Assembly (NCBI RefSeq): GCF_964253315.1
Contig: NZ_CAXUQX020000001.1
Location: 1,899,571 to 1,923,570, forward strand
Length of the DNA stretch: 24,000 nucleotides
From: Trinickia sp. LjRoot230
GTDB lineage: Bacteria; Pseudomonadota; Gammaproteobacteria; Burkholderiales; Burkholderiaceae
Reading direction: 5' to 3'
Part shown: in pieces, positions 3,256 through 19,810 of the stretch
Position numbering within the stretch: the stretch's first letter is position 1
Layout of the letters: each line of letters opens with the position of its first letter
Program-made: the position numbers and the translations under genes
The notes under the pieces: generated by a model
What the model was told of the DNA's origin: nothing
The model's input: only the letters and a program-made list of their open reading frames with translations
Databases searched by the model: none

Positions 3256-3401
3256 TCGAATACGACACAGCGGGAATGCAGCGCAAATGCGATGAATACG
3301 GCGCGCGCGTTCGGTTTGCGAATCGCATCTTCGTGCAGCGATTTTATTCAATTGCGCGGCTCGCTATGCTTGGCACCTGTTTTAATGCCTTGGGGGCCGG
3401 T

Positions 3402-4121: not shown

Positions 4122-4124
4122 TTT

Positions 4125-4163
4125 GTGCGAAGCACGGCTGATGAACACAGCCTTGCTTCGCAC
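4125..4163. terminator. Nested hairpin between convergent genes (candidate bidirectional terminator)
   Basis: GTGCGAAGCA-c-GGCTG-atgaaca-CAGCC-t-TGCTTCGCAC forms 10 + 5 bp of stem. It sits exactly between the stop of the hypothetical gene (4121) and the pirin stop (4197). There is no U-tract on either strand. Confidence 0.45.
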
Positions 4164-4196
4164 GATTACTGACTACAGGCTAGGTACCCGCCGGCT

Positions 4197-4922: not shown

Positions 4923-5065
4923 ATCGACCTCCGGTTGTTGGGTTGAGGCCGCGAGCCGTTCGCTGCCATTCACCATTCGCTCAGTGTAAGTCAACTTAAA
5001 CGGCTTAAATCATGGGAGAATGCGAATCACTGTCTCAAATTAGTGGACATTCAGTAAGCACTCCT

Positions 5066-5956
5066 ATGCAACTCGACGATCTGCGAATCTTTGTTGTTAC
5101 GGTCGAAGCGCGTAATTTCACCGCCGCGGCGGATCGTCTCCAATTGTCGAAGCAGTTCGTAAGCCGCCGCGTAATGGCACTCGAGGCCGGTCTCGGTGTG
5201 CGCTTGCTCGTGCGCAATACGCGCAAGCTCACGGTAACCGACCTGGGCCAGGAGCTTTACGAGCGGGCGAAGCGAATCCTGGCCGAGGTGACGGATGCCG
5301 AGCAGGCCATGTCGCTGCGACGCTCGCAGCCGCGGGGCTTGCTGCGCGTCAGCGCGCCGATGTCGTTCGGCACGACGCATTTGTCGCCGCTCGTTGCCGA
5401 CTTCATGCGTGGCAACTCGGAGGTGCGTGTCGATATCGAACTGAGTGACCGGGTCGTCGATTTGATTGGCGACGGCTTCGACATGGCGCTGCGCATCGGA
5501 ACGCTGTCGGATTCGACGCTGATCGCACAAAAGCTTGCCGAGATCCGGATGGTGACCTGTTGTTCGCCGGCTTATCGCGCAGCGCGCCGGCCGCCGGCGA
5601 CACCGGAGGACCTGATTCGGCACCCGTGTTTGCTCTACGGGCAGGAAGGGCGCACGGGTTGGGAGTTCGTCATCGACGGCGTAAAGCGCGCTATCGAAGT
5701 GCGGGGCCCGCTGCGTGCCAATAATGGTGAAGTGATTCGTGATGCCGCCATCGCGGGGTTGGGCGTAGCGCTACTGCCCGAATTCATCGTTTCGGCTGCG
5801 ATTGCGAATGGGGAATTGATCGAATTGCTCGATGTATTCGCGGCGCCTGCGCTCGCGCTTTATGCCGTGTGCCCGCAACATCGCGAAAGCTCGCTCACTA
5901 TCCGCGCGTTCACGCAATTCTTGCGACAGCGCTTCGCGCGGGCGCTAGGCATTTGA
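5066..5956 (+). CDS. LysR-family transcriptional regulator
   Basis: MQLDDLRIFVVTVEARNFTAAADRLQLSKQFVSRRVMALEAGLGVRLLVRNTRKLTVT is a typical LTTR helix-turn-helix, followed by a substrate-binding domain. It is divergent from pirin, a classic pairing. The start is chosen at the M that gives the canonical LTTR N-terminus. Confidence 0.9.
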   Translation: MQLDDLRIFVVTVEARNFTAAADRLQLSKQFVSRRVMALEAGLGVRLLVRNTRKLTVTDLGQELYERAKRILAEVTDAEQAMSLRRSQPRGLLRVSAPMSFGTTHLSPLVADFMRGNSEVRVDIELSDRVVDLIGDGFDMALRIGTLSDSTLIAQKLAEIRMVTCCSPAYRAARRPPATPEDLIRHPCLLYGQEGRTGWEFVIDGVKRAIEVRGPLRANNGEVIRDAAIAGLGVALLPEFIVSAAIANGELIELLDVFAAPALALYAVCPQHRESSLTIRAFTQFLRQRFARALGI

Positions 5957-6074
5957 TGCGTTGCGTGGGAAGCGTTGCTTGGGGCAATACCTTGCCGGCA
6001 AAGTCGAGCGACGTTGCCGGCGTGGTATCAAGGCACGAGAGACGCTTCGGGCGTCGGTGCATCTATCAGGACAC

Positions 6075-6287
6075 TCAGTACATCTTCTTCGGCGGTTGCG
6101 AGCGGCGAACCTGCTTGCGCAACCGGGCCACTGCGGCGGCTTTCTTGCGCTTGCGCTCGGCGGTGGGCTTTTCGTAGCTCATCCGGGCGCGAAGCTCTTT
6201 CAGGAGACCAGTGCTTTCAATAGCGCGCCGAAAGCGGCGGAGTGCAACTTCGAGCGGTTCATTCAGTTTAGGCGTAACGGTTGTCAA
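6075..6287 (-). CDS. rpsU: 30S ribosomal protein S21 (bS21), standalone copy with TTG start
   Basis: (L/M)[69 protein letters not shown] is 70 aa, the canonical S21 length and motifs. The TTG at 6285-6287 (complement) is preceded by AAGGA 6 nt upstream. The gene is not linked to dnaG or rpoD. Confidence 0.85.
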
Positions 6288-6710
6288 GTCGTTCCTTGGT
6301 TGGGACTCCAGCGGCGTCGTGCTAAGCGCTTTTGAGCGCATCAACTCGCCGCCCAGGCGCATGAGTCATTCATCAGTCAAGGACAGACGCGCCAAGTGTT
6401 ATATCTGTCGATGATATCGTGCCCCGTTTCCATGAGCCGTAGCCGACGGGTTGGGCCATATCGGCCTTGCAAACGGCCTGCCAACACAATCTATCGGCGA
6501 AAAAGCTCGAGCGCGCGCGGAAAAAAGAAGGGGAGCGAGGGGCTCCGGCCGGGCATCAGGGCGATGCCGATGCGATCGTTCCGCGGCAAAGGGCAAGTCA
6601 CTATACACGTTATTGCCCGGTTGACCCGACGTTTTTTCATTAGTAGCGCTCGAAAAGCGAGCCGGATCATGGCTTTCCGCGTTATTTCGAGAGGCAGCGC
6701 AACAAGCTGC

Positions 6711-6739
6711 TTGACAGTCCGAACGGTGCCGGATACTAT
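6711..6739 (+). promoter_or_regulatory. Sigma70-type promoter for the cold-shock gene
   Basis: TTGACA (6711-6716), an exactly 17-nt spacer, then TACTAT (6734-6739). This predicts a roughly 150-nt 5' leader before the csp ATG at 6897. That is comparable to the long thermosensing leader of E. coli cspA. Confidence 0.55.
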
Positions 6740-6896
6740 TCGAATCTGAAGTTTTCAAGAAGTCCGATTGCTGCTCATCAGTTCACCGCTTGTCGCGCTG
6801 TATTCGTTGTCCTCTCCCTGCTTGATACTTTGACTCTGCACCCGCGAAATTTTTCGCTGGGCGCGTATATGTTTATTTTTTGCTTTAAGGATTTTT

Positions 6897-7100
6897 ATGG
6901 ATACGGGTATCGTCAAGTGGTTCAACGACAGCAAGGGCTTCGGCTTTATTACGCCTGACGCAGGCGGCGACGATTTGTTCGCGCATTTTTCGGAGATTCG
7001 TGGCGAAGGCTTCAAAACGCTCGCCGAGAACCAACGCGTGCAGTACGAAACCAAGCGTGGCCCCAAGGGCCTGCAGGCCGCGAATATCACGGCGCTGTAA
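6897..7100 (+). CDS. Cold-shock protein, CspA family (67 aa)
   Basis: [34 protein letters not shown] carries the RNP1 (KGFGFI) and RNP2 (LFAHF) motifs. AAGGA lies 6 nt upstream of the ATG. Confidence 0.95.
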
Positions 7101-7138
7101 TTTGAAGTGCCTGCGCCGGCCTCAGCGCCGGTGCCGTT

Positions 7139-7175
7139 GCACGGCATCGAATGCTCGATGTCGTGCGCTACTTTT
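7139..7175 (+). terminator. Candidate intrinsic terminator of csp
   Basis: GCACGgCATCGA-atgc-TCGATGtCGTGC forms a 12-bp stem (one G-U pair) with a 4-nt loop. It is followed by gctaCTTTT, about 40 nt downstream of the csp stop. Confidence 0.55.
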
Positions 7176-7282
7176 CCAGCTTCGATTCCTTCGGCCTCGG
7201 TTTACTACGGCTCTTCAATCTGCAGGTCAGTCGCCCTGCTGCTGGTCAATCATTCCACGGATAAACGCTTTTCACGTGCGCA

Positions 7283-7558
7283 ATGCAGCGTGAGGCAAGT
7301 TCCGTTCAAAACAAAATTAAAATGCGTAATTCACGTTCACACTCACATGTTCAGCACTACCGCGGTTATGCGGTACAGTCTTCGGCGCATCGTTTGCCCG
7401 ACGGGTATTTTTCCTCGAACCTGATGATCGAGCGATCGACCCTACCGGTCTCGTCGGATCGCTACGATTTTTATGCGCTCGATTATTTTTCGAACGAAGC
7501 CGAAGCAATCGATTTTTCGAAGCGCTGGGCGCGTCATTGGATCGACTCGCGCGGTTGA
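7283..7558 (+). CDS. Small hypothetical protein (78-91 aa; start ambiguous, 7283 or 7322)
   Basis: The ORF encodes ...HYRGYAVQSSAHRLPDGYFSSNLMIERS...YDFYALDYFSNEAEAIDFSKRWARHWIDSRG. I could not identify an SD sequence. The YRG-aromatic N-motif and the F-x-EA...ID C-motif recur in the ORF at 7888..8181. Confidence 0.5.
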   Translation: MQREASSVQNKIKMRNSRSHSHVQHYRGYAVQSSAHRLPDGYFSSNLMIERSTLPVSSDRYDFYALDYFSNEAEAIDFSKRWARHWIDSRG

Positions 7559-7589
7559 TCGGCTCGGTCACGCGTATGCCAGGCGATAC

Positions 7590-7607
7590 CCGCAAGCTTG
7601 CTTGCGG
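7590..7607. terminator. Short hairpin between convergent small genes
   Basis: CCGCAAG-cttg-CTTGCGG (7-bp stem, 4-nt loop) lies between the plus-strand stop at 7558 and the minus-strand stop at 7608. There is no U-tract. Confidence 0.3.
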
Positions 7608-7928
7608 TCAGAGGAAAGCCAAAAGCGCAAGCTGATGCCGCGTTTCGCCGCCTTTTACGAGCGAATAGAGACACGCCTGCTTGCGTTCTTGCTGCGTCCA
7701 TCCGTTGTCGTCGATGAACCGGTCCCAGCGCGCATCTTCGAGCGAGATAGGCCGCCCACGCGTGCGCGCGAACGATTGCAGCATTCGGCTGGCCGATCGG
7801 CGCATCAACGTGCCGCTCTCGTCGAGAACATACGATTCGTGTCCGATGCGGATGACGAGATAGTGCGGATGGATGGGCGTGTTCACGTCATTGCACATCC
7901 CATAGACTGTCGCCGCCGGTGCTGGCAT
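7608..7928 (-). CDS. Small hypothetical protein (96-106 aa; start 7898 or 7928), second gene of a two-gene operon
   Basis: High GC3 in frame. Sequence: MCNDVNTPIHPHYLVIRIGHESYVLDESGTLMRRSASRMLQSFARTRGRPISLEDARWDRFIDDNGWTQQERKQACLYSLV. The start overlaps the upstream gene's end by 11 nt (ATGTGCAATGA) or 41 nt. Confidence 0.6.
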   Translation of the reverse strand: MPAPAATVYGMCNDVNTPIHPHYLVIRIGHESYVLDESGTLMRRSASRMLQSFARTRGRPISLEDARWDRFIDDNGWTQQERKQACLYSLVKGGETRHQLALLAFL

Positions 7929-8181
7929 CGATCAATTGTTCGGCGTAGAGCGTCGAGGCACGTCGTGCGTCGCCGGTATTCTCGAACGGCTTGGGCGAGG
8001 CCAGCCGAAACACGCGGCTGCGGGCCGCAAGCGTGCCTGATGCGAGCTCGCTGATTCTGACGGCTGCGTCGAAGCCTGCCTCGTAATCGCGCGCGAGTCC
8101 CGGCTGGGTTGCCCGGTGGGGAAAGACGAGGGGATAGATCTCAAAGCCGCGATACAGGCGAAGGTTGGCGGTGATTGTCAT
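7888..8181 (-). CDS. Small hypothetical protein (97 aa), first gene of a two-gene operon
   Basis: This is the 3'-terminal part of the 404-aa track ORF 7888..9102. The ATG at 8181 has GGAG 7 nt upstream. Sequence: MTITANLRLYRGFEIYPLVFPHRATQPG...FENTGDARRASTLYAEQLIDAS. GC3 is high. Confidence 0.6.
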   Translation of the reverse strand: MTITANLRLYRGFEIYPLVFPHRATQPGLARDYEAGFDAAVRISELASGTLAARSRVFRLASPKPFENTGDARRASTLYAEQLIDASTGGDSLWDVQ

Positions 8182-8326
8182 GGACTGCTCCGTGGCCGCG
8201 CTCGCGCGCGGCGTAATGATGTAGGTGGCGTAGCGCAACGGATCAATGGACACGCTGCCGGGTTGATTGCGCAGCCGCGATGAACTGGGCGCTGCTTTTG
8301 CGTTCGCTGGCCGATAAAAAATGAAG

Positions 8327-8350
8327 AAGGCGCACCTTTTGGTGCGCCTT
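8327..8350 (-). terminator. Orphan terminator-like hairpin in a divergent intergenic region
   Basis: AAGGCGCACC-tttt-GGTGCGCCTT is a perfect 10-bp GC-rich stem. Read on the minus strand it is followed by cttcaTTTTTTat. No annotated gene reads into it from either side. Confidence 0.35.
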
Positions 8351-8580
8351 TCGTGCGCTAGGGGTAGAGCACTCGGCTTTTCGCCCGATCGTACGCGCTT
8401 TCCTCTATTTGTACAGTTAAATTTCCGCGCACGTCTGCCGCGACGGTCTATCTGGCGCCGAGCGGCAGAGGCCCCCAAACGGGGAGCCGGGCCGACGTGC
8501 GATAATGCCGGATCACTTCTTTTCCATACGGCGCGCGGACATGGCCTGATCCAAAGCTTGGCGCCGGGCACGCATTCCCC

Positions 8581-9762
8581 GTGAAAAATTTCGTTGTCCC
8601 AATCGATGCGCTCGCCTCGTTCGACGAGATCGTAGACGTGCGCACGCCGCTCGAGTTCGCGGAAGACCACATCCCCGGCGCAATCAATGCGCCCGTGCTC
8701 AGCAACGAGGAACGGGTGATCGTCGGCACGCTTTACAAGCGTTCGCCATTCGAAGCAACGCGCATCGGCGCCGCGATGGTCGCGCGCAATATCGCACATC
8801 ACCTCGACACCTGCTTTGCCGATCGGCCCCGCAACTGGCGCCCGCTCATTTACTGCTGGCGAGGCGGCAAGCGCTCGGGTTCGATGACGGCCTGGTTCAA
8901 CATGGTCGGCTGGCAGGCTCGCCAGCTCGACGGCGGGTATAAGGCGTATCGGCATCACGTGCTCGATCAACTGGAGCATCTCGCGCCGCAGTTGACGTAT
9001 ATCGCGCTGACGGGCCATACCGGAACGGGCAAAACCCGCTTGCTGCAGGCACTCGCCGCAGCCGGCGCCCAGGTACTCGATCTGGAAGCGCTCGCGCTGC
9101 ATCGTGGCTCGCTGTTGGGCGCATTACCCGATTCGCCGCAGCCGACCCAAAAGGCGTTCGACACTGCATTGGCCACGGCGCTCTCGGCAATGCAGTTGGA
9201 TCGTCCCGTGTTCATCGAGGCGGAAAGCCGCCGTATCGGCAAGATCACTGTCCCGACTTCATTGCTCGACGCGTTTCGTGCCGGCCGTTGCGTGCGCGTG
9301 AGCGCGCCGTTGCCGATGCGTGTGAAGTTTTTGCTCGAAGACTACGCGCATCTTTTCGATACGCCACAACATTTCAAGGATCAACTGGCGCGATTGATCG
9401 GGTTGCAAAGCCGCCAGACCGTCGAGCGCTGGCATACGCTGATCGATGCGAACGAGCGGACGCAACTGTTTACGGAACTCGTCGAAGCGCATTACGATCC
9501 TGCCTACGCGCGTAGCAGCGAGCGCTCGTTTGGCCGAATCGACCATGCGATGCAGTTTTCGTTTGACCCATGCGCGTGCGTGGCCAACCGCATCGACCAG
9601 GCGCGCGAACTCCTCGCTCAACTCGAAGCAAACGGCATGATGTCCATTGCTGCTCGCGCCATACCAGGTGCGCCGAGCACGGCATCTGCCGCACCGACGA
9701 ACCAATCGAGCGCGCAACGCAACGGACGGCATGGCGCACCGGCTGGCATTGCGGATAGCTGA
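8581..9762 (+). CDS. selU: tRNA 2-selenouridine synthase (SelU/MnmH/YbbB)
   Basis: The N-terminal rhodanese domain (IVDVRTPLEFAEDHIPGAINAPVL, active-site loop YCWRGGKRS) is followed by the P-loop LTGHTGTGKT, which is the SelU architecture. GTG start. A roughly 40-aa low-complexity C-terminal tail is present. Confidence 0.9.
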   Translation: MKNFVVPIDALASFDEIVDVRTPLEFAEDHIPGAINAPVLSNEERVIVGTLYKRSPFEATRIGAAMVARNIAHHLDTCFADRPRNWRPLIYCWRGGKRSGSMTAWFNMVGWQARQLDGGYKAYRHHVLDQLEHLAPQLTYIALTGHTGTGKTRLLQALAAAGAQVLDLEALALHRGSLLGALPDSPQPTQKAFDTALATALSAMQLDRPVFIEAESRRIGKITVPTSLLDAFRAGRCVRVSAPLPMRVKFLLEDYAHLFDTPQHFKDQLARLIGLQSRQTVERWHTLIDANERTQLFTELVEAHYDPAYARSSERSFGRIDHAMQFSFDPCACVANRIDQARELLAQLEANGMMSIAARAIPGAPSTASAAPTNQSSAQRNGRHGAPAGIADS

Positions 9763-9828
9763 ACCGAATCGCGCGAGATCAGCGACACAAACCCTGTACG
9801 ACAAAACCAAGCGCACGCCTACCGGACC

Positions 9829-10899
9829 ATGGAATCATTTGTTCAAACCCGCCGCCCGGCGGCATCGCCCATCGCCGTTGCAGTTTTTGTGCTGATTGCG
9901 GTGGCCGGGCTCTTTTACGTCAAGTGGTCGCCGTACTACGCGCGCCTCTTTGTCGCCGCGGGCACCCATTCGATCGGACATTCGATCCTCAGCGGCACGG
10001 CTTCGACACCGCCCGCCGCATCATGGCAAGCGGCGCTGCACTACGCGAGCACCTATGGTCGTGCGATTTGGCAAGCGATGGTGCTCGGCTTGCTGCTCGG
10101 CTCGGCTGTGCAGACGCTACTGCCCGCGCATTGGATTGCGCGCGTACTCGGGGGAGCGGGGTTGCGCAGTGTCGCAGCCGGTGGCGTGCTTGCCCTTCCA
10201 GGAATGATGTGCACTTGTTGTGCCGCGCCCGTCGTGGTGGGGCTGCGCAAGCGCCAGGCGTCGCAAGGCGCTGCCGTGGCATTTTGGCTCGGCAATTCCG
10301 TGCTCAATCCGGCCACGCTGGTGTTCATGGGGTTCGTGCTCGGCTGGCATTGGACCGCATTGCGCCTGGTGTTAGGTGTGCTGCTGGTGTTCGGTGGCGG
10401 GTGGCTCGTAGATGCGACGGCGAGCGCCGCCGAACGCGCGTCCGCGCGAGCGCAACTGCAATCGCTGGAGATAGCTGGCGAGTCGCCGCAGGGCAACGCG
10501 TTCGCCCGCTGGCTCAAGCTGCTTGCGCAGATGACCGTTCGGCTCGTGCCGGAATACATCGTGCTCGTATTGCTGCTGGGTGCGGCGCGCGCCTGGCTTT
10601 TCCCGCATGTCGGCCCCGAGGTCGACAACGCGATCAGTTGGATCGTCGCATTCGCCGCGGCTGGTACGCTGTTCGTCATTCCGACCGCGGGCGAGGTGCC
10701 GATCGTTCAGACGATGCTTTCGTTCGGTGTGGCGGCAGGCCCTGCCGCGGCGCTCATGATGACGTTGCCGCCCATCAGTGTTCCGTCGCTCGTGATGACT
10801 GCGCGCGCGTTGGGTACGCGCGTGGTGGTCATGATGCTGCTGATGGTGTTGGCCACGGGAATCATGGCGGGCTGCATCGCGGCGGCGTTGCACTTATGA
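9829..10899 (+). CDS. Polytopic inner-membrane permease, COG0701/ArsP-like (DUF318) family, with an MCTCC cysteine motif
   Basis: 356-aa ORF with about 8-10 hydrophobic spans. LPGMMCTCCAAPVVVGL sits inside a TM segment, resembling the vicinal-Cys (CxC) motif of ArsP-type permeases. The gene lies 66 nt after selU and 43 nt before selD on the same strand. Confidence 0.75.
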   Translation: MESFVQTRRPAASPIAVAVFVLIAVAGLFYVKWSPYYARLFVAAGTHSIGHSILSGTASTPPAASWQAALHYASTYGRAIWQAMVLGLLLGSAVQTLLPAHWIARVLGGAGLRSVAAGGVLALPGMMCTCCAAPVVVGLRKRQASQGAAVAFWLGNSVLNPATLVFMGFVLGWHWTALRLVLGVLLVFGGGWLVDATASAAERASARAQLQSLEIAGESPQGNAFARWLKLLAQMTVRLVPEYIVLVLLLGAARAWLFPHVGPEVDNAISWIVAFAAAGTLFVIPTAGEVPIVQTMLSFGVAAGPAAALMMTLPPISVPSLVMTARALGTRVVVMMLLMVLATGIMAGCIAAALHL

Positions 10900-10942
10900 G
10901 TGCTTTGCGGCTTTTTTTCGCGCGTTCTTTGGAGACACTGCG

Positions 10943-12025
10943 ATGACATCGGTTTCGACTTCGACTTCGACTTCGACGACAGCTGCCGCGGTGCCGCGTT
11001 TGACTGAGCTTTCCCATGGCGGCGGGTGTGGTTGCAAGATCGCGCCGGGCGTGCTGGCCGAGTTGCTCAAGCGCACGGTGCCAATGCCGGCTTTCGCGGA
11101 TCTGCTCGTCGGCTCCGATACGGCCGATGACGCCGCAGTCTATCGGCTCAACGACGAGCAGGCCATTGTCGCGACGACTGACTTCTTTATGCCGATTGTC
11201 GACGACCCGTACGACTTCGGCCGCATCGCCGCAACCAACGCGCTCTCCGATATCTATGCGATGGGCGGCAAGCCGCTGTTCGCGCTCGCGATCGTTGGCA
11301 TGCCGATTAACGTGCTGCCGCGCGAGACCATCGCGAGTGTGTTGCGCGGCGGCGAAGCAATCTGTGCAGAAGCCGGCATACCTGTGGCGGGCGGGCATTC
11401 GATCGACTCGGTCGAGCCGATCTATGGGCTTGCCGCGATCGGCGTCGTGCACCCGCAGCATATCGCGCGCAATGCGAGCGCGCATGAAGGCGATCTGCTC
11501 GTGCTGGGTAAGCCGCTTGGTGTCGGCGTATTGTCGGCTGCTCTTAAGAAGGGGCAACTCGATGCTCGAGGATATGCGGCAATGATTGCCGCGACTACGC
11601 GGCTGAACCGGCCTGGCCCCGCGCTGGCCGCGCTCGATGGCGTCCATGCCATGACGGATGTGACGGGCTTCGGTGTGCTCGGGCACCTGTTGGAGCTATG
11701 CCGTGGTGCCCAACTTGCTGCACGCGTCGACTTCTCTGCGCTGCCTTGGCTGGAAGGCGTGATCGAACTGGCGCAGCGCGGCATGATCACGGGCGCGTCG
11801 GCTCGCAACTGGGCTGCCTATGGTGCCGATGTCACGCTCGCACCAGCGCTGCCGCCGTTTGCACAGGCATTGCTGACCGATCCGCAGACATCGGGCGGTC
11901 TGCTCGTGTCCTGTGCGGCGCACGCGGTGGGCGAGGTGCTTGCCTGTATGAAAGCAGGCGGCTTCGACGAAGCCGCAGTCATTGGTACGCTCGTGCAGGG
12001 CGCGCCGCATGTGGTCGTTGCCTGA
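10943..12025 (+). CDS. selD: Selenide, water dikinase (selenophosphate synthetase), Cys-type
   Basis: SHGGGCGCKIAPGVL is the glycine-rich N-terminal loop with the catalytic Cys in place of Sec. DDAAVY, TTDFF and the AIR-synthase-like fold motifs follow. GGAG lies 8 nt upstream of the ATG. Confidence 0.95.
   Translation: MTSVSTSTSTSTTAAAVPRLTELSHGGGCGCKIAPGVLAELLKRTVPMPAFADLLVGSDTADDAAVYRLNDEQAIVATTDFFMPIVDDPYDFGRIAATNALSDIYAMGGKPLFALAIVGMPINVLPRETIASVLRGGEAICAEAGIPVAGGHSIDSVEPIYGLAAIGVVHPQHIARNASAHEGDLLVLGKPLGVGVLSAALKKGQLDARGYAAMIAATTRLNRPGPALAALDGVHAMTDVTGFGVLGHLLELCRGAQLAARVDFSALPWLEGVIELAQRGMITGASARNWAAYGADVTLAPALPPFAQALLTDPQTSGGLLVSCAAHAVGEVLACMKAGGFDEAAVIGTLVQGAPHVVVA
10955..10978 (+). 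repeat. Hexanucleotide tandem repeat (TCGACT)x3 plus TCGACG inside the selD 5' end
   Basis: tcgact tcgact tcgact tcgacg encodes (ST)4 at SelD residues 5-12, upstream of the catalytic loop. Confidence 0.9.
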
Positions 12026-12050
12026 GATAGCGTACCCGGCCAGGTCATAT

Positions 12051-12947
12051 TTAGGACTCCGAAGTAACGCAACCGACGCACGCGAGACGCACAGCGAGGA
12101 AATCGATCAATGTGCGCACGCGGCGCGGGATCGTACGCCCTGAGAGCCAAACGAGGTGCATCGGCGCCGGTGCGGGCTCGAATGCATCGAGCACAGTCAC
12201 GACCGCCCCGGAATCGAGCAGCGACTGCACTTGAAAGATGGGCGCGCGTCCGATGCCCGCACCGGCGAGCGCAGCCTGGTTGCAGGCCATGGCGCTCGGC
12301 GACCTGAAGCGGCCGGTCACATCGACGGAGCCGCCGGCACGGTTGAATGTCCATGTCTCGCGCTTTGTGTCCTGGCGCAGGATGCACTCGTGCGTAGCAA
12401 GGTCGGACGGATGAGCGGGCCAGCCGTGTAACTCGAAGTAGTGAGGCGCACCGAAAACCACACGTCGCAATGCGCCGATCGGCTTGGCTCGCAAGTTCGA
12501 ATCGGGCAGGCGCCCCAGCCTGATAGCAATGTCGATGTCGTGATGCGCGAGGTCCACATGTCGCTCGTCGAGCAGCAATTCCACTCGAATGTTCGCATGG
12601 GCTTGCAAGAACTGCGCGATGATCGGTGCGACGAAATCGGCACCGAAAGTGGTCGGTGCTCCGACGCGAATGCTGCCGCGCAGCTCCTTGGCGAGATCTG
12701 CAACTTCCTCCCGCGCCGTTCGTATCGCATGGACGGCAGGGCGGATTTTCGCCGCGAATTTCAGGCATGCCGCAGTGGGCTCGACGCGGCGCGTCGTACG
12801 ATGAAAGAGCGTCGCGTTCAGATCGCCTTCGATTGCCGCAAGGGTGCGGCTCACCGATTGCAATGTCCGCCCCAACGATTTCGCCGCGGCAGTGAGACTG
12901 CCGTCGTCGATGATGGCCAGCAATACTTCATATTCGTCTCGGCTCAC
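12051..12947 (-). CDS. LysR-family transcriptional regulator
   Basis: YEVLLAIIDDGSLTAAAKSLGRTLQSVSRTLAAIEGDLNATLFHRTTRRVEPT is the helix-turn-helix, followed by an LTTR effector domain. The gene is convergent with selD (25-nt gap) and divergent from the glcG-like gene. Confidence 0.9.
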   Translation of the reverse strand: MSRDEYEVLLAIIDDGSLTAAAKSLGRTLQSVSRTLAAIEGDLNATLFHRTTRRVEPTAACLKFAAKIRPAVHAIRTAREEVADLAKELRGSIRVGAPTTFGADFVAPIIAQFLQAHANIRVELLLDERHVDLAHHDIDIAIRLGRLPDSNLRAKPIGALRRVVFGAPHYFELHGWPAHPSDLATHECILRQDTKRETWTFNRAGGSVDVTGRFRSPSAMACNQAALAGAGIGRAPIFQVQSLLDSGAVVTVLDAFEPAPAPMHLVWLSGRTIPRRVRTLIDFLAVRLACVGCVTSES

Positions 12948-13011
12948 GGATTCTCTCGATTTTCGGAAGAATGTTTGACGGCTCTGCGCGCTATGCGCGG
13001 CAGGGATGCAA

Positions 13012-13030
13012 GCGTACAGTCTACTGACGC
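13012..13030. promoter_or_regulatory. Candidate LTTR box (T-N11-A dyad)
   Basis: GCGT-acagtctactg-ACGC lies in the 135-bp divergent LysR/glcG intergenic region. It is nested in a wider TGCAA...TTGCA inverted repeat. Confidence 0.3.
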
Positions 13031-13082
13031 GTTCGTTGCATTAGGGCGAATCACAGGTGTTTCACGTGACCGGAGACAAGAC

Positions 13083-13535
13083 ATGACACAAGCGAACACA
13101 ACCGATACCCCGCTTACTTATAGCAGCCAATTGACGCTCGCGGATGCGCGTCGCGTCGCTCAAGCGGCGGAACAAGAAGCCGTGCGTAACGGTTGGCCGA
13201 TGGTGATTGCGATTGTCGACAGCGGAGCGAACCTGATGCTCCACGAGCGGCTAGATCAAGCACAGCTTGGCAGTATCGAAGTCGCCAAACAAAAGGCCGA
13301 GACCGCAGTCAGATTTCGCCGGCCCACGCGAGTTTTCGAGGATGCCGTGGCACAAGGCGGGCTCCACTGGCGGTTGCTCGGTATGACGAATCTCGTGCCG
13401 CTGAATGGCGGCATTCCATTGATGCGCGACGGAGCAGTGGTTGGCGCAATCGGCGTATCGGGGATGAGTTCGGAGCAAGATGCGCAAGTCGCGCAGGCTG
13501 GCGCCAACGCGCTGGCCGAACACGCGCCGCAATAG
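13083..13535 (+). CDS. GlcG/HbpS-like (DUF336) heme-binding-family protein (150 aa)
   Basis: LADARRVAQAAEQEAVRNGWPMVIAIVDSGANLM...GGIPLMRDGAVVGAIGVSGMSSEQDAQVAQAGANAL matches the GlcG signature GGxPxxxxGxxxGAxGVSG...DxxxA. The part of the track ORF upstream of 13083 is antisense to the LysR gene. Confidence 0.85.
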   Translation: MTQANTTDTPLTYSSQLTLADARRVAQAAEQEAVRNGWPMVIAIVDSGANLMLHERLDQAQLGSIEVAKQKAETAVRFRRPTRVFEDAVAQGGLHWRLLGMTNLVPLNGGIPLMRDGAVVGAIGVSGMSSEQDAQVAQAGANALAEHAPQ

Positions 13536-13555
13536 AATAGCTGCGTCGAACGGTG

Positions 13556-15340
13556 TCAGGCCGGCAATGCGGTCGGCGTTGCTGCGCGCACTCTTGCGAG
13601 CGTGTCTGCGAGATAGGACTCGCGCGCTGCACGCCGCTTGATTTTTCCGCTCGATGTCTTCGGGATGGTGCCTGGCTCGATGAAGACAATGTCGAACAGG
13701 CTTAGCTCATATTCATCGAAAATGGCGCGGCGAAGGTGCGCGGCTAGCTCGGCAGTATCGACATTGCGCCGGCTCGCACGTTCGATCTCCTGTACGAGTA
13801 CGACCCTTTCCTCGCCGTGGGGCCCGTCAACGGAAAAAGCCGCGTTGCTGCCGGCGCGCGCGGCAGGGCTTGCCTGCTCGGCGATGCGCTCGATGTCTTG
13901 CGGATAATAGTTGCGCCCACGCACGATGATGACGTCCTTCAGCCGGCCGACGACGAACAGCTCGTTGTCGCGCATCACGCCGAGATCGCCGGTGCGCAAA
14001 TAGCGAGTGCGAGTTTCGTCGCCCTCGATATGCGCATGAAACGTGTCGCGAGACGCCGCTTCGTTCTCCCAATAGCGCTCGGGCACGTGTGAGCCGGTTA
14101 CCCAGATTTCGCCGACCATGCCGTGCGGCAGCGCTTGCCGTGTGTGTGGCGCGACGATGGCGATCGACTCGCCGGCCAATGCGTGGCCGCATCCGACGAG
14201 CCGCGAGTTGCCGTCGGGCAGCGTGGGCGCCACGAGCCGTCCGCCGGCCAACGCGGCCTTGTCGGCGCTAATGACGACGGTGGCAGCAGCCGGGTCTTTG
14301 CCCGAGATCATCAGCGTGGCTTCCGCCATGCCGTAGCACGGGTACATCGCGGTAGCAGACAAACCGAGTGCGGCGAATCGCGCTGAGAACGTCTCGACGG
14401 TGTTCGCCCTAACGGGCTCGCCGCTGTTGAATGCCACCTCCCAACAGGACAGATCGACCTCGCAGGCGCGAATTTTTTCGAACGCCTTGATGCACAGGTC
14501 ATAGGCGTAATTGGGGCCGCCGCTGACCTGCGCTCGGTATTCGCTGATCGCGCGCATCCATAGCGTCGGGTCGCGCGCGAAGTCGCCCGGCGCCATCAGC
14601 ACCGAATGTCCACCCATGTACAGCGGTTGAAGGATGTTTCCGATAAGGCCCATGTCATGGTAAAAGGGCGCCCATCCAACATAAATCACCCCGGGACAGC
14701 TGCGTAACGCATCGCACTGCATCGCGAGATTGGACAATACGTTCGCTTGTCGGACGACGACCCCCTTCGGCAGTGAGGTCGAGCCCGACGTGTATTGGAT
14801 GAACGCGGTGTCGTGCGCAGGATGAAAAGCACCGCCGGTGCCGCGCTCGTCGTCGACGAACGGCGTCCAATCGTTCAGCGGCCAGATCGCCATGTCTGGC
14901 GTCGCGCCATCGAGTTCATCGGCGATCGAGCGCGGCACGTCCTCCGATACCAGACAAACCGTCGCGCCGCAATCGCGCGCAATCGCCGTCGTTGCGTCGC
15001 GCAGGCGCTTGTTGCGCAACGACGGAATAGGAACGGGCACCACGCCCGCGTATTGACACGCGAAGAACGCGACGATGAACGTGAGACCGGACCCGAGCAT
15101 CAGCATGACCCGCGCACCGGGACGCGTGGCCGCGGCGAGCGCGCTGCCGAGCCCGATAGCGGCGCGATCGAGTTCGCGATAGCTGATGCTATCGACGGCT
15201 TGTCCGCGCACGAGGAACGTATACGCCGTCGCATCGGGTTTCACGCTTGCCCAGTGGCGCAGCGTTTGCGCGAGCGTCGAAACGGCACCTGCGTGCCAGG
15301 TCGGGTCGCGATCGAAAGCAAGGCGCAGTGTCATCGTCAT
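13556..15340 (-). CDS. Fatty acyl-AMP ligase (FAAL; FadD32-like adenylating enzyme)
   Basis: 594-aa ORF. IQYTSGSTSLPKGVVVRQANVLSN (A3 motif), YLRTGDLG and GRLKDVIIVRGRNYYPQDIE (the FAAL-typical A8 region), and PKTSSGKIKR (A10) are all present. It is the last gene of the four-gene cassette. Confidence 0.85.
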   Translation of the reverse strand: MTMTLRLAFDRDPTWHAGAVSTLAQTLRHWASVKPDATAYTFLVRGQAVDSISYRELDRAAIGLGSALAAATRPGARVMLMLGSGLTFIVAFFACQYAGVVPVPIPSLRNKRLRDATTAIARDCGATVCLVSEDVPRSIADELDGATPDMAIWPLNDWTPFVDDERGTGGAFHPAHDTAFIQYTSGSTSLPKGVVVRQANVLSNLAMQCDALRSCPGVIYVGWAPFYHDMGLIGNILQPLYMGGHSVLMAPGDFARDPTLWMRAISEYRAQVSGGPNYAYDLCIKAFEKIRACEVDLSCWEVAFNSGEPVRANTVETFSARFAALGLSATAMYPCYGMAEATLMISGKDPAAATVVISADKAALAGGRLVAPTLPDGNSRLVGCGHALAGESIAIVAPHTRQALPHGMVGEIWVTGSHVPERYWENEAASRDTFHAHIEGDETRTRYLRTGDLGVMRDNELFVVGRLKDVIIVRGRNYYPQDIERIAEQASPAARAGSNAAFSVDGPHGEERVVLVQEIERASRRNVDTAELAAHLRRAIFDEYELSLFDIVFIEPGTIPKTSSGKIKRRAARESYLADTLARVRAATPTALPA

Positions 15341-15421
15341 CGAGAATCGACTCGTGAATCAATGGAGTTAGTTCGTCATGCAAAGCGGTGCAATGCAATG
15401 CGGATCTGGCGTTTCGCCATC

Positions 15422-16315
15422 TCACCATCGCGCATCGTGCTTCCAACGGCCGGTGATCGGGCGTAGCGCCAATCGCAGCAGGCCGATTTTTCCCATATGA
15501 AAGCCGATGGCCGATTGTTTGAGATAGCGTTCATAGCGCGACGTGACCGCTTCACCCACGAGTTGCACCGCTTGCTCTCTTCGCTTCGCTAAATTGCGCG
15601 CCCAGCACTCGAGTGTGCGGGCGTAATGCAAGCGATGATTGACGACACTCGTGATCTCGAACAGGTCTTGCGTGCTTTTGACGATTTCTTCGAATGTAGG
15701 CAGGTCTGCCGATGGAAAAATTTCGTTATTGATGAAGGCACTGGCTTCGCTGCGTTTCATCGTTCCGTATGCAATCGTTTGCAGCGACAGGCGCCCGTCG
15801 GGCGTGAGCCAATCGCGGCAGCGACGAAAAAAATCGGCGTAGAGCGCGATTTTTTGGGTGTCGCTGTCCTCGGGGGAGGCGAAGTGCTCGAATGCGCCGA
15901 CCGAGACGATGGAGTCATAGCGCGCCTCGGGTTCGTGATCGGCCCAATGCTCGAGTCGCACGTCGGCGTGAGGCAAGCCAAGCGCGCTGACATAGTCGAA
16001 TTGATCGTGGCTTAATGTGAGCCCCGTGGCTCTCGCGGCTCGCCGTTCGAGGCACGCGAGCTGTAACAGCGCGCCCCATCCGCAGCCAATGTCGAGTACG
16101 TTCGATCCTTCTTGAACATGCGCCGCGTCGAGATGCAAGCGGATCTTCGCGAGCTGTGCGTCACGCAGTTCGCCGCCGGCACTCGCGTCGGGCCAGAGTG
16201 CACACGAGTAGGACAGCGTATCGTCGAGCCAGAGCGCGTAGAAGGCACGGCCTACGTCGTAGTGATAGGCGATCGCGGAGGCCGAACCCCCATAGTTCGT
16301 TGCGGCGGTACTCAT
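15422..16315 (-). CDS. Cyclopropane-fatty-acyl/mycolic-acid synthase-family SAM-dependent methyltransferase (297 aa)
   Basis: HYDVGRAFYALWLD, SAM motif VLDIGCGWGALL, the catalytic-region motif VSVGAFEHF and C-terminal YERYLKQSAIGFHMGKIGLLRL are present. The size class matches CmaA/MmaA (about 290 aa) rather than E. coli Cfa (382 aa). The start overlaps the ACP stop in ATGA. Confidence 0.85.
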   Translation of the reverse strand: MSTAATNYGGSASAIAYHYDVGRAFYALWLDDTLSYSCALWPDASAGGELRDAQLAKIRLHLDAAHVQEGSNVLDIGCGWGALLQLACLERRAARATGLTLSHDQFDYVSALGLPHADVRLEHWADHEPEARYDSIVSVGAFEHFASPEDSDTQKIALYADFFRRCRDWLTPDGRLSLQTIAYGTMKRSEASAFINNEIFPSADLPTFEEIVKSTQDLFEITSVVNHRLHYARTLECWARNLAKRREQAVQLVGEAVTSRYERYLKQSAIGFHMGKIGLLRLALRPITGRWKHDARW

Positions 16316-16602
16316 GCAGCGTGCCTTTGCGGCAGGCGGCGCACAACGTCCGCGGCGAGCTCGGCCAGCGTTGTATTTTCGAATATCACCGACGGCGGGA
16401 TTTCCTGGCGGACATATACCTCGAGATCGAGCAGCATCGAAGTCGTGATGGCTGAGTCGAGCCCGAGGCTGTCGAGCTCGGCATGTTCGTCGAGTTCAGC
16501 CTCGGAGAAGTTGAGCACCTGCGCGAGATAAGCCTTGCACCACGCGACGATCATCGCGGCATCGACGGTTGCGGGGCTGCCTTGGGCGAGTTCTGTGTGC
16601 AT
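16312..16602 (-). CDS. Stand-alone acyl carrier protein (96 aa)
   Basis: The ATG at 16602 has AAGGAAA upstream. The phosphopantetheine attachment motif is LDSLGLDSAITTSM. The upstream part of track ORF 16312..16743 overlaps the desaturase 3' end and was rejected. Confidence 0.8.
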   Translation of the reverse strand: MHTELAQGSPATVDAAMIVAWCKAYLAQVLNFSEAELDEHAELDSLGLDSAITTSMLLDLEVYVRQEIPPSVIFENTTLAELAADVVRRLPQRHAA

Positions 16603-16613
16603 GTTGGCTTTCC

Positions 16614-17573
16614 TTATCGAGTGGCGAGCGGCCGTCGTTCGAGCGCTTGCATTTGGGCTTTCGTGGGCACGTTGACCTCCCGCGCAAGCCCGGTCAGCGC
16701 GAGCAGACAGATGAACCAATAGCCGGGATCGATGCGATACCACGCAAGGCCGAATGACGCCGACGCGGGGAACGCATGATGGTTGTTATGCCACGGCTCG
16801 CCGAAAACGAACGGCGCCAATAACGCGATGTTGCGGCTTTCGTCACGCGCGCGAAATCGTCGCGTACCGAGCATATGGCCAAACGAGTTGAGGGCCCAAA
16901 TCGAGTGTTCGAGAATGAACATTCGCACAACGCCACCCCACAGCGCACCCGTTAGGAGTCCTATCCATTCACCTCGCAGCGCCGCACACAAGATGGCCGG
17001 CAAAATGACTCCCGCGATCGCGCAGTAGTAGTAGCGCCGATTGATGGCAACCAGCAGGCGTTCGCGCACGAGATCCGGCGCGTACTGAACCACATTGGGA
17101 TACGGGTGCCCCGCCATCCAGGTGAAATGGGCATGAGCCAGCCCTCGCAGGCGCCCGCGCAGCGAGGCGCCATGCAAATTCGGCGAGTGGACGTCGCCGT
17201 CTCGATCGGTTAATTCGTGATGCCGCCGATGCATTGCCACCCATGAGATGACGGGGCCTTGACCGGCCATCTGCCCGACGATCGCCAACGCTGCGGCCAA
17301 CACGCGATTTGCTTTGAACGAGCGATGCGTGAAGAGCCGATGGTAGCCAACCGATACGCTGAGCCCCGTCGCAGCCCACATGAGCAAGAACACTACGGCT
17401 TCTTGCATGCCGACGTGAAACGAACGTGCCGTGGCGAATGCAACCAGCGTTACCGGAATCGGCAGAATGTCGAAAATGACGAAGTGTTTGCGCTGCAGCC
17501 GGCGCAACGCGGGATCGTCGATAACCCGCCTGGCTCCAGGGCTCATAGCCGGTCCGCCGGTGCAGCCTTGCAT
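16614..17573 (-). CDS. Membrane fatty-acid desaturase, Delta9/SCD-DesC-DesA3 family
   Basis: Three His boxes are present: GYHRLFTHRSF, WVAMHRRHHELTDRDGDVHSP and GEPWHNNHHAFP. There are two pairs of hydrophobic spans. GGAGG lies 4 nt upstream of the ATG at 17573. It is the first gene of the cassette. Confidence 0.85.
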   Translation of the reverse strand: MQGCTGGPAMSPGARRVIDDPALRRLQRKHFVIFDILPIPVTLVAFATARSFHVGMQEAVVFLLMWAATGLSVSVGYHRLFTHRSFKANRVLAAALAIVGQMAGQGPVISWVAMHRRHHELTDRDGDVHSPNLHGASLRGRLRGLAHAHFTWMAGHPYPNVVQYAPDLVRERLLVAINRRYYYCAIAGVILPAILCAALRGEWIGLLTGALWGGVVRMFILEHSIWALNSFGHMLGTRRFRARDESRNIALLAPFVFGEPWHNNHHAFPASASFGLAWYRIDPGYWFICLLALTGLAREVNVPTKAQMQALERRPLATR

Positions 17574-17670
17574 GACGCCTCCAATGGGTTTTTTCCGACA
17601 ATGGCGAACGCGGTGCTCGTCGATGGGATTTGCAATCCCAATGTTAGGAAAATTGCGTGCTTGCGCGGAG

Positions 17671-17697
17671 CGCGTGTTTCGGAGTCGCGTGTTTCGG
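17671..17697. repeat. Tandem direct repeat CGCGTGTTTCGG x2 (15-bp period) upstream of the desaturase operon
   Basis: cgcgtgtttcgg-agt-cgcgtgtttcgg lies about 100-125 nt upstream of the desaturase start. It is bracketed by the imperfect inverted repeat aattGCGTGC (17651-17660) / GCACGCgcaat (17704-17714). Confidence 0.6.
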
Positions 17698-18079
17698 CGA
17701 AGCGCACGCGCAATGTACGCAAGCCGTTGACCGGCGTGGCGTTGCGCGAAATACGATGGGCCAAACCCAAAAAACGCCTACTACGGGAATGATTAGAACC
17801 GAAACGGCAGGCAGTGCCGTCGATGCTGTTTTCGTTGAGTGCACAACTAAAAGCGGACCGATCCAGGGTGCGGCGTATCGTCGGTGCAAGTGCAAACCTG
17901 CCGTCGCTATGTCGCTTGGCCACAGTGCTTCGCGAATCGGTTACAATCTTGCGTTCGCCGTTTGAAAGGCGCTCGAGTGGAAGAAATGGCGTGAATCTTT
18001 CCACACGGCAGTCCGTCAAGCGGCCGCAGCATGAACAGCGAACACGAACGCGCATTGCATACCTATGCGCGATTCGGCT

Positions 18080-18166
18080 GCGAGGATGGCGAAATTGGTA
18101 GACGCACCAGGTTTAGGTCCTGACGCCAGCAATGGTGTGCGGGTTCGAGTCCCGCTCCTCGCACCA
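18080..18166 (+). tRNA. tRNA-Leu, anticodon UAG (class II, long variable arm, encoded CCA)
   Basis: Acceptor stem GCGAGGA/TCCTCGC, D-arm GCGAAATTGGTAGACGC, anticodon loop TT-TAG-GT, long variable arm CGCCAGCAATGGTGT, T-arm GCGGG-TTCGAGT-CCCGC, then ACCA. It is near-identical in layout to E. coli tRNA-Leu(UAG). Confidence 0.95.
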
Positions 18167-19266: not shown

Positions 19267-19299
19267 CCTGCTAGCGCAGACTAGTCGGGCGCTAGCAGG
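19267..19299. terminator. Perfect 11-bp hairpin between convergent genes
   Basis: CCTGCTAGCGC-agactagtcgg-GCGCTAGCAGG starts 4 nt after the panE-family stop. Its loop and 3' arm overlap the last codons of the MarR gene. There is no U-tract. Confidence 0.4.
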
Positions 19300-19730
19300 T
19301 TCGTAATGACCTTGTCGAGCATCTGTCCGAGCGCGGCTTTTTCGGCGTCATCGAGGCAACCGAAAAGATCTGCATTCCATTTGCGGGCGATCGGCATCAC
19401 TTTGCGATAAAGCTCGCGACCTTCCTCGGTCAGAGAGATCAACACGACACGCCCGTCGTCGCTGCAAGACTCGCGCCGCGCGAGCCCGCGTTGGATTAGC
19501 GCTTCGGCTGCGCGGCTCGCCTGGCTTTTGTCGAGGTTGGCCCGCTTGGCGAGATCCATGATCGAAAACGGCCCGAACGAGCCGACCGATGCGATGACGC
19601 GCGCCTCCGGCAGCGTGATTTCAAGCTTCGTCTGATAGCGTTCGCTGATGAAGCGATCCGAAAGCTTGTTCAAAACGTGCATACGGTAGGTCAGAAATTT
19701 GTCGAGCCCGGCTTTGGCAGCGGCCTTCAT
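19281..19730 (-). CDS. MarR-family transcriptional regulator
   Basis: The winged helix is LPEARVIASVGSFGPFSIMDLAKRANLDKSQASRAAEALIQRGLARRESCSDDGRVVLISLTEEGRELY. The start is at 19730 (MKAAAKAG), with an alternative at 19760. Confidence 0.85.
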   Translation of the reverse strand: MKAAAKAGLDKFLTYRMHVLNKLSDRFISERYQTKLEITLPEARVIASVGSFGPFSIMDLAKRANLDKSQASRAAEALIQRGLARRESCSDDGRVVLISLTEEGRELYRKVMPIARKWNADLFGCLDDAEKAALGQMLDKVITNLLAPD

Positions 19731-19810
19731 AGGAATCCCGTGGGTTGGATGGCAAAGCAAGTGGCCCGGCGTGCCGCGAAAAACGCAGTCAGGGGGGCTG
19801 CATGTGCGAC

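Follow-up and report, generated by a model that had tools for sequence, protein, structure and literature searches.

A four-gene cassette in Trinickia sp. LjRoot230, probably for fatty-acid loading, desaturation and one-carbon transfer on a dedicated acyl carrier protein and probably a minimal member of a conserved cluster family

Background

The tailoring of a fatty acid while it is held on a dedicated acyl carrier protein (ACP) has been described for a few kinds of bacterial gene clusters. In the JamABC and TtuABC cassettes and in the polyyne clusters (cay, ccn and pgn), a fatty acyl-AMP ligase (FAAL) loads the dedicated ACP, and the thioester formed is the substrate of a membrane desaturase (PMC8406139, PMC11837247); in the characterised stand-alone FAAL/ACP pairs it is a free fatty acid that the FAAL loads on the ACP (PMC11837247). 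The polyyne clusters have three desaturases, a thioesterase and a rubredoxin, and the survey of them mentions no methyltransferase of the CMAS family (PMC8406139). In the fischerazole study of 2026, the methyltransferase FshF was shown in vitro to act on cis-8/9-hexadecenoyl-FshE that the FAAL FshA had charged, and from the cis-8 chain it made products with a vinyl branch or a cyclopropane; the same study notes many uncharacterised FshF homologues in other phyla and names them as future targets (PMC13548996). This is the one demonstration we found of one-carbon (C1) transfer to fatty acyl chains on a carrier outside mycobacteria. Here we analyse a chromosomal stretch of 24,000 nt (24 kb; the window in the following) from the root-associated bacterium Trinickia sp. 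LjRoot230, in which a membrane desaturase, an ACP, a short CMAS-family methyltransferase and an FAAL stand together in one operon.

The window had earlier been read from its letters alone, and this sequence-only reading did not take the four-gene combination for a characterised system, which is out of date given the fischerazole work (PMC13548996). A private, FAAL-loaded ACP as the site of action of a membrane desaturase is already known in kind from Jam, Ttu and the polyyne clusters, and since 2026 fsh has added a CMAS-type methyltransferase. On the whole, our analysis leads us to consider it probable that the four genes belong to a conserved family of cassettes that tailor fatty acids on a carrier protein, as a minimal member gained by horizontal transfer, and that loading, desaturation and C1 transfer take place on the ACP.

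Gene content of the cassette

The four open reading frames (ORFs) all lie on the minus strand and together occupy 13556-17573. Their proteins, and also the flanking trigger factor, are exact matches to RefSeq entries of the strain. The first in the operon is a membrane fatty-acid desaturase of 319 aa (16614-17573; PF00487, 4e-19) with the three His boxes HRLFTH, HRRHH and HNNHH, for which the closest solved structure is the stearoyl-CoA desaturase SCD1 (4ymk, 2e-22). The length of 319 aa follows from the ATG at 17573, which has a GGAGG 4 nt to its 5' side, versus 310 aa with the start given by NCBI/RefSeq. Next is a stand-alone ACP of 96 aa (16312-16602; PF00550, 8e-11), a divergent, PKS-like (polyketide synthase-like) carrier with the phosphopantetheine site LGLDS. 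It is followed by the short CMAS/CFAS-family methyltransferase dependent on S-adenosylmethionine (SAM), with 297 aa (15422-16315; PF02353 CMAS, 3.9e-66) and with VLDIGCGWG and VGAFEHF read in its translation. The last gene encodes the FAAL of 594 aa (13556-15340; PF00501, 1.8e-59, and PF23024); the top NCBIfam and PDB matches of this adenylating enzyme are all FAALs (7r7f with 1.5e-125, 3kxw, FadD32 and 3pbk), and the motifs YTSGSTSLPKG and GRLKDVIIVRGRNYYPQDIE are read in the translation.

The genes are closely packed. The desaturase stop TAA (16616-16614) is followed by 11 nt and then by the ACP start ATG at 16602, the ATGA at 16315-16312 joins the ACP stop to the methyltransferase start in a 4-nt overlap, and a spacer of 81 nt (15341-15421, minus strand) separates the methyltransferase from the FAAL, at the site that holds a P450 with or without a thioesterase in the other relatives. 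The G+C content by codon position of the cassette genes is gene-like, with third-position values (GC3) of 0.68-0.75. Coordinates, strand, junctions and all the motifs quoted in the sequence-only reading were found as it gave them when read again, Pfam searches match its four domain assignments (PF00487, PF00550, PF02353 and PF00501), and the operon-like packing that it described is directly visible in the gap, the overlap and the spacer.

Related clusters in other genomes

Homologues of the roughly 300-aa methyltransferase are numerous, with identities of 52-69%, and the genomic context is readable for eleven relatives outside the Trinickia lineage. The relatives come from Burkholderia ubonensis (two assemblies), Bordetella genomosp. 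13 (two records), Thalassospira marina (two assemblies), Paraburkholderia domus, Variovorax paradoxus, Nocardia salmonicida and three metagenome contigs. The identity of the window proteins to these related proteobacterial and actinobacterial cassettes is 53-69% for the methyltransferase, 53-65% for the desaturase and 44-58% for the FAAL. The order desaturase-ACP-methyltransferase is kept wherever the contigs of the relatives extend far enough, with one context showing ACP-methyltransferase only. Directly 3' of the methyltransferase there is a P450 in 11 of 11 relatives, after which there is usually a PF00975 thioesterase and then the FAAL, and the full order desaturase-ACP-methyltransferase-P450-thioesterase-FAAL is present in five distinct clusters. 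The window matches both ends of this six-gene core, having desaturase-ACP-methyltransferase at the 5' end and the FAAL at the 3' end, all in one direction. Two natural fusions, P450::FAAL with 1031 aa in Paraburkholderia domus (locus L089, 10934-14029) and P450::thioesterase with 654 aa in Variovorax paradoxus (L090, 10894-12858), link these partners in function. In L001, L005 and L091, too, the ACP and methyltransferase genes are coupled, either overlapping by 4 nt or directly abutting.

Compared with the six-gene-core clusters, the window is without the P450, the PF00975 thioesterase and the common accessory genes, which in many proteobacterial copies comprise 4HBT, TauD, DUF6817, Mem_trans, MR_MLE and an Sfp-type phosphopantetheinyl transferase (PPTase). 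Further additions are a β-ketoacyl-ACP synthase III (KAS III) with a radical-SAM enzyme in some copies, a nonribosomal peptide synthetase (NRPS) in Thalassospira and a PfaA-like PKS in Nocardia. The PF00975 thioesterase has no match in the window; L007 and L089 have none either, and none was seen on the partial contig L092. A tblastn search of the window with the P450 of L001 gives no match, no similarity is left between the 81-nt spacer and the P450-FAAL spacers of L007 and L092, and no remnant of a P450 or thioesterase is detected elsewhere in the window. The presence of FAAL, ACP, 4HBT and TauD (and NRPS) in the larger relatives suggested the isonitrile chemistry of ScoA-E/Rv0096-0101 for them, which we reject: among solved structures, the TauD of L001 has At3g21360 and 9yut as its best matches and no match to ScoE, and the 4HBT of L001 is PaaI-like with no match to Rv0098. 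In a literature search of incomplete coverage, with MIBiG outside its scope, we found no characterisation of the proteobacterial and actinobacterial family and no product for any member. Scans of genome contigs with a methyltransferase alignment and of metagenome contigs with the single methyltransferase were swamped by the generic motif (L)DIGCGWG, and no close relatives are among the matches listed; these loci served for the comparison of Gln-type and His-type neighbourhoods below.

The same gene families are also found in other arrangements. In the cyanobacteria Tolypothrix (L009) and Scytonema (L010), the four genes are ordered FAAL-desaturase-ACP-methyltransferase, and in Tolypothrix the set lies directly upstream of a type I PKS. 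On the conjugative plasmid bgla_1p of Burkholderia gladioli BSR3 (L093, 74210-84863), we find the order LuxR-FAAL-desaturase-desaturase-ACP-methyltransferase-PKS-ACP-P450-hydrolase-LuxR, with a methyltransferase 48.5% identical to that of the window. A homologue with 39% identity is present in 111 Ralstonia plasmid or megaplasmid records; in the one record whose context was read, the Ralstonia solanacearum megaplasmid CP023017.1 (L094, 2010344-2015605), the order is ferritin-like-methyltransferase-thioesterase-ACP-delta-9 desaturase-patatin-lysophospholipase, without an FAAL, and the methyltransferase, 39% identical to that of the window, is of the Gln type described below. Neither the B. gladioli plasmid cluster nor the Ralstonia cluster turned up in the literature searched.

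Reduction and selection

Among 13 related contexts, only the window and L008 are without the P450. L008 is a contig of 3.8 kb from another sample, having the same reduced layout, the conserved 81-nt spacer and 92.6% nucleotide identity to the window; the ACP of the window is 98% identical to that of L008 and 61% identical to that of L007. The neighbour-joining (NJ) trees of the methyltransferase, the desaturase and the FAAL are mutually congruent. In these trees, the window and L008 are sister to L007, which has the P450 and no PF00975 thioesterase, and all three fall within the P450-bearing proteobacterial clade; Nocardia is placed next to this clade and the cyanobacteria outside. As far as small trees can tell, their congruence means that the cassette genes move together, and with the window nested inside the P450-bearing clade, the simplest account of the four-gene form is a derived loss of the P450. 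Similarly, the absence of a release enzyme would most simply be a lineage-specific loss and not a design feature of the family. With the order desaturase-ACP-methyltransferase kept among the relatives and the three larger genes giving congruent trees, the four-gene arrangement is far beyond chance.

The reduced cassette shows no decay. When the window is compared with L008, the methyltransferase has a dN/dS of 0.12, the FAAL of 0.10 and the ACP of 0.04, with dS of 0.16-0.29, and since both have the reduced layout, this purifying selection has acted on the four-gene form itself. The homology between the window and L008 ends exactly at the FAAL stop codon, and directly 3' of the FAAL, L008 has a fragment of a Tn3-family transposase (2868-3215; PF01526), which suggests that the cassette has moved between contexts.

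The methyltransferase

Over its whole length, the methyltransferase can be aligned with the mycolic-acid methyltransferases (E-values of 1e-32 to 7e-39); the sequence-only reading had noted its likeness to the mycobacterial CmaA/MmaA enzymes of roughly 290 aa in size and in the GAFEHF motif. Its alignment to the phospholipid cyclopropane fatty acid (CFA) synthases begins only at their residue 111-119 or so (5z9o, 4e-39), and because of this, the alignment places the enzyme among those without the N-terminal lipid-binding domain of about 110 residues that the phospholipid CFA synthases have. The NCBIfam scores are under the cut-off for both classes, with 166 versus 390 bits for mycolic_MTase and 156 versus 400 bits for CFA synthase.

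The bicarbonate site, in E. coli numbering C139/E239/H266/I268/Y317 (PMC3132707), is kept at four of five positions, namely C38, E143, I181 and Y231, and the His is replaced by Gln179 (codon at about 15779-15781). This Gln is present in 68 of 175 homologues among the matches listed and marks a large clade. Among the loci listed, an FAAL lies within 5 kb of 24 of 65 Gln-type versus 3 of 96 His-type methyltransferases, a neighbouring ACP is found for 19 of 65 versus 0 of 96, and a neighbouring desaturase for 16 of 65 versus 2 of 96 (Fisher p of 1e-5 to 5e-9 for the three enrichments). The His-to-Gln change was considered as an argument against cyclopropanation, and this was rejected, as Gln is also found at this site in plant cyclopropane synthases that are active (PMC3132707).

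The genomic islet and its surroundings

The cassette, together with a divergent LysR/HbpS-like pair, makes up a strain-specific islet of 6.05 kb (12026-18074). Outside the islet, the window is collinear with the genomes of Trinickia symbiotica (L175) and Trinickia caryophylli (L176) at 71-86% nucleotide identity, apart from unmatched stretches at 3256-4198 (both species) and 5952-8495 (T. caryophylli), and the islet itself is absent from both; there, selD is followed by 185-265 nt, then by tRNA-Leu(TAG) and then by panE. In the window, the islet sits between selD and the tRNA-Leu, against the 5' side of the tRNA. This tRNA-Leu with anticodon TAG (18080-18166, plus strand; found by ARAGORN, Rfam RF00005 with 53.6 bits) forms the right boundary of the islet, and in T. 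symbiotica and T. caryophylli it stands at the same position with 100% and 95% identity, respectively. The most likely reading of this comparison is that the cassette has been horizontally acquired. As its GC3 of 0.68-0.75 is close to that of the host genes (0.71-0.80), the acquisition is either not recent or from a similar genome. The reduction from the P450/thioesterase family and the tRNA-Leu islet were not visible to the sequence-only reading.

Some other features of the islet and its surroundings are given here for completeness. The divergent LysR gene (12051-12947) and the HbpS-like PF03928 gene (about 13131-13535) are members of the islet, stand beside no related cluster, and are not common to L008, whose homology stops at the FAAL stop. 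At 8581-12025 there is a selenouridine-type trio of a selU-like gene (rhodanese/AAA), an ArsP-type permease gene and selD, which is kept in all three Trinickia genomes compared. Between another LysR gene (5012-5956) and selU lie about 2.5 kb (5952-8495) that may be a second strain-specific insertion: the two genes are adjacent in T. caryophylli, and the stretch has no Pfam or Rfam match, flat codon-position G+C content in its ORFs and a lower G+C content of 0.555-0.573. A further stretch of about 0.9 kb in the GntR/pirin interval (3256-4198), with an ORF of 334 aa that matches no family, has no counterpart in T. symbiotica or T. caryophylli.

Leader, regulators and missing functions

To the 5' side of the desaturase, on the minus strand, lies a non-coding leader or promoter region of 506 nt (17574-18079) with a G+C content of 0.56. 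It contains a perfect 7-3-7 palindrome, TGGGATTGCAAATCCCA, at 17640-17624, about 50 nt 5' of the desaturase start, and a tandem repeat of CCGAAACACGCG at 17697-17686 and 17682-17671 with a spacing of 15 nt, both of which may be operator sites. The Rfam search of the window finds no riboswitch or other RNA element besides the tRNA, and the terminator-like matches in the scan of the leader are fewer than expected by chance. An ORF at 17543-18055 was considered as a fifth gene and rejected, as its G+C content is flat over the three codon positions (0.54/0.58/0.58) and it has no Pfam or NCBIfam match and no homologue in the related loci. RefSeq has it as the 153-aa hypothetical protein WP_436019087 (153 of the 170 aa as called); the gene call is probably spurious, and the stretch is best read as leader.

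Two regulator genes lie within 2 kb of the cassette, the LysR gene of the islet and a MarR gene (19281-19760), which corrects the sequence-only reading in its view that no regulator flanks the operon. Compared with the proteins beside the related clusters, they reach at most about 26% identity, which is the generic level of the family, and they are not orthologues. Its other statement, that there is no thioesterase, acyltransferase, ketosynthase (KS) or PKS/NRPS module in or beside the operon, extends to the domain searches of the whole 24-kb window, in which none of these is detected; with no KS, acyltransferase (AT), condensation (C) or adenylation (A) domain found in it, the window has no PKS/NRPS assembly line to receive the chain. 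Also, neither the islet nor the rest of the window encodes a PPTase, a rubredoxin or an exporter, so that these functions and that of the release enzyme would be supplied in trans.

Discussion

Based on the gene content and on the comparison with the relatives, we propose the following course of events for the cassette. The FAAL would adenylate a free medium- or long-chain fatty acid and load it on the dedicated ACP, as is suggested by the family assignments and by the behaviour of the characterised stand-alone FAAL/ACP pairs. The membrane desaturase would then introduce a cis double bond in the tethered chain, or act beside one, and the short CMAS-type methyltransferase would move a C1 unit from SAM to the double bond, with a cyclopropane, a methyl-branched alkene or a vinyl branch as the possible outcome. 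In most relatives, the P450 would next oxidise the chain and the thioesterase release it. The Trinickia lineage would have lost these two enzymes, so that hydrolysis or transfer of the modified acyl-ACP would fall to an enzyme whose gene lies elsewhere. The view that the methyltransferase works on a carrier-bound chain is supported indirectly by the missing lipid-binding domain, the start codon coupled to the ACP gene, the neighbours of the Gln179 clade and the precedent of FshF; similarly, the missing N-terminal domain, the ACP-coupled start and the precedent of FshA, FshE and FshF speak for carrier-bound desaturation and C1 transfer, as the sequence-only reading had presumed.

Several points weigh against this proposal. 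The pathway cannot run on the islet alone, which is without a release enzyme, a PPTase, an electron donor and an exporter. The scan of the leader for the sigma-70 consensus gives no promoter match. The NJ trees are built from 12-14 sequences with no bootstrap, and the tblastn queries of the enrichment test were derived from the cassette, which biases the test towards close relatives and makes it weak for divergent ACPs. The likeness to fsh rests on cyanobacterial homologues at 40-47% identity and not on the sequence of FshF itself, and the fsh study leaves the role of the desaturase unsettled (PMC13548996).

Concerning the order of the steps, the FAAL might instead load an unsaturated acid (palmitoleate, cis-vaccenate), with the methyltransferase acting first and the desaturase second to give a cyclopropene or a methyl-branched conjugated diene, and with the P450 of the relatives adding oxygen last; we regard this as unlikely. 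The precedents would be plant sterculate biosynthesis for the cyclopropene and the furan-fatty-acid route for the diene, but we know of no cyclopropene fatty acid in bacteria. The reverse order gains from FshF, which in the assay accepts free cis-unsaturated acids loaded by the FAAL without the desaturase, the role of FshD being unsettled (PMC13548996), and also from the His-to-Gln change, which, together with Cys-to-Ser/Ala in some relatives, is common to the plant cyclopropane synthases from cyclopropene producers (PMC3132707). Here, however, the His-to-Gln change seems to be a clade marker only, the desaturase stands first in the gene order, and the Jam, Ttu and polyyne desaturases act directly on the loaded acyl-ACP (PMC8406139, PMC11837247). 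A much less probable reading, and the least credible of all those weighed here, is a JamABC/TtuABC-type alkyne cassette, in which a bifunctional desaturase/acetylenase would form the terminal alkyne on the ACP, with the methyltransferase added for some other role. The co-location of FAAL, ACP and membrane desaturase does fall under the operational definition of Mullins et al., by which 4,990 "alkyne cassettes" were found, 95% of them in Proteobacteria (PMC8406139); but the one characterised homologous module yields vinyl and cyclopropane products and not alkynes (PMC13548996). The conservation of the desaturase-ACP-methyltransferase triad as a unit across phyla also speaks against it. So does the chemistry of CMAS enzymes, which attack cis-olefins.

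Concerning the fate of the product, the cassette might serve the remodelling of membrane lipids, where it would salvage free fatty acids, modify them on the ACP and supply them through a housekeeping acyltransferase to the phospholipids, ornithine lipids or lipid A of this root coloniser. Such a role does not conflict with the mechanism that we propose and bears only on where the product goes; we hold it to be about as improbable as the reversed order of steps. An islet with no PKS, NRPS, exporter or release gene in a housekeeping neighbourhood would fit with it, as would purifying selection on genes that have no thioesterase among them. The related cluster on the Ralstonia megaplasmid, where patatin and lysophospholipase genes stand beside those for methyltransferase, thioesterase, ACP and desaturase, also fits, as it hints at a traffic of phospholipids. 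On the other hand, the dedicated thioesterases, the P450s and sometimes the PKS or NRPS of the relatives resemble specialised-metabolite clusters, and the ACP of the window is divergent and PKS-like, unlike AcpP, which housekeeping acyltransferases normally use. That the four genes are a non-functional remnant of a larger cluster, left after deletion of the P450, the thioesterase and the accessory genes, is in our view very unlikely. Such a deletion could account for the two P450-less layouts among the 13 contexts, the lack of release enzyme and PPTase, the Tn3 transposase fragment directly after the FAAL of L008 and the leader without a promoter consensus. However, none of the four ORFs is disrupted, the catalytic motifs are all in place, GC3 is gene-like, and dN/dS between the two strains with the reduced layout is 0.04-0.12 at dS of 0.16-0.29.

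Returning to the proposed tailoring on the carrier, a bolder form of it would be that the cassette is a whole pathway, minimised in nature, to an unusual chain (a cyclopropene, a vinyl-branched chain or a methyl-branched diene) that is fed into the cell's own lipids or a signal, which we put forward with low confidence. On this bolder reading, the Gln179-type methyltransferase/ACP/FAAL family would be an undescribed class of carrier-dependent lipid tailoring in Proteobacteria and Actinobacteria, taking in the P450/thioesterase clusters, the LuxR-flanked plasmid cluster of B. gladioli and the Ralstonia megaplasmid cluster. The cassette of the window, with four genes and no assembly line, P450 or thioesterase, is the smallest natural version and a convenient handle on the position of the double bond, the order of the enzymes and the question of how Gln in place of His may steer the carbocation to a cyclopropane, vinyl or methyl product. 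The cassette also connects testable chemistry with a set of orphan clusters, in part plasmid-borne, from Burkholderiaceae that include plant associates and pathogens. The locus is a clean four-gene entry into a widespread, partly plasmid-borne family of lipid-tailoring clusters that appears to be unstudied.

Comparison with known systems

The phospholipid CFA synthases (E. coli Cfa and the L. acidophilus CFAS 5z9o) have a homologous catalytic domain and four of the five bicarbonate-site residues in common with the window methyltransferase. An identity with them was rejected for the missing N-terminal domain, the score of 156 against 400 bits and Gln179 in place of His. The mycolic-acid methyltransferases (CmaA1/2, PcaA, MmaA1-4 and UmaA) act on carrier-bound chains and, like the window enzyme, have about 290 aa, no N-terminal domain and a collinear sequence. 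They differ from it in the His that is Gln here and in the partner, which is AcpM/FAS-II (the type II fatty acid synthase) for them and a private, FAAL-loaded ACP in the window; an identity with them was rejected with 166 bits against the cut-off of 390.

Among the gene clusters, JamABC and TtuABC have the co-located FAAL, ACP and membrane desaturase in common with the window when gene content is compared. Unlike the polyyne clusters, the window has one desaturase, no thioesterase and no rubredoxin, and membership of the polyyne type is ruled out by the single desaturase where three are needed. Nothing in the window points to afc either, so that the refuting case named in the sequence-only reading, a place within a characterised cluster of known product such as these two, does not apply.

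The fsh starter module of Fischerella sp. PCC 9431, with the FAAL FshA, the desaturase FshD, the ACP FshE and the methyltransferase FshF, comprises the same four families as the window, and its order of desaturase, ACP and methyltransferase is the same as judged from the gene lettering. With fsh itself being compared by description, the window proteins are 40-47% identical to the module homologues of Tolypothrix and Scytonema, which also have Gln179; the desaturase-ACP-methyltransferase triad of Tolypothrix is at 31-47% identity. The FAAL comes first in the cyanobacteria and last in the window, and whereas fsh is located inside a PKS/NRPS/halogenase cluster and passes its chain to a PKS, the cassette of the window stands alone, without a downstream acceptor. 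Overall, as judged from its sequence, the locus departs from the proteobacterial and actinobacterial cluster family in the P450 and the thioesterase, and has, without an assembly line, the domain-level features of the fsh-type module.

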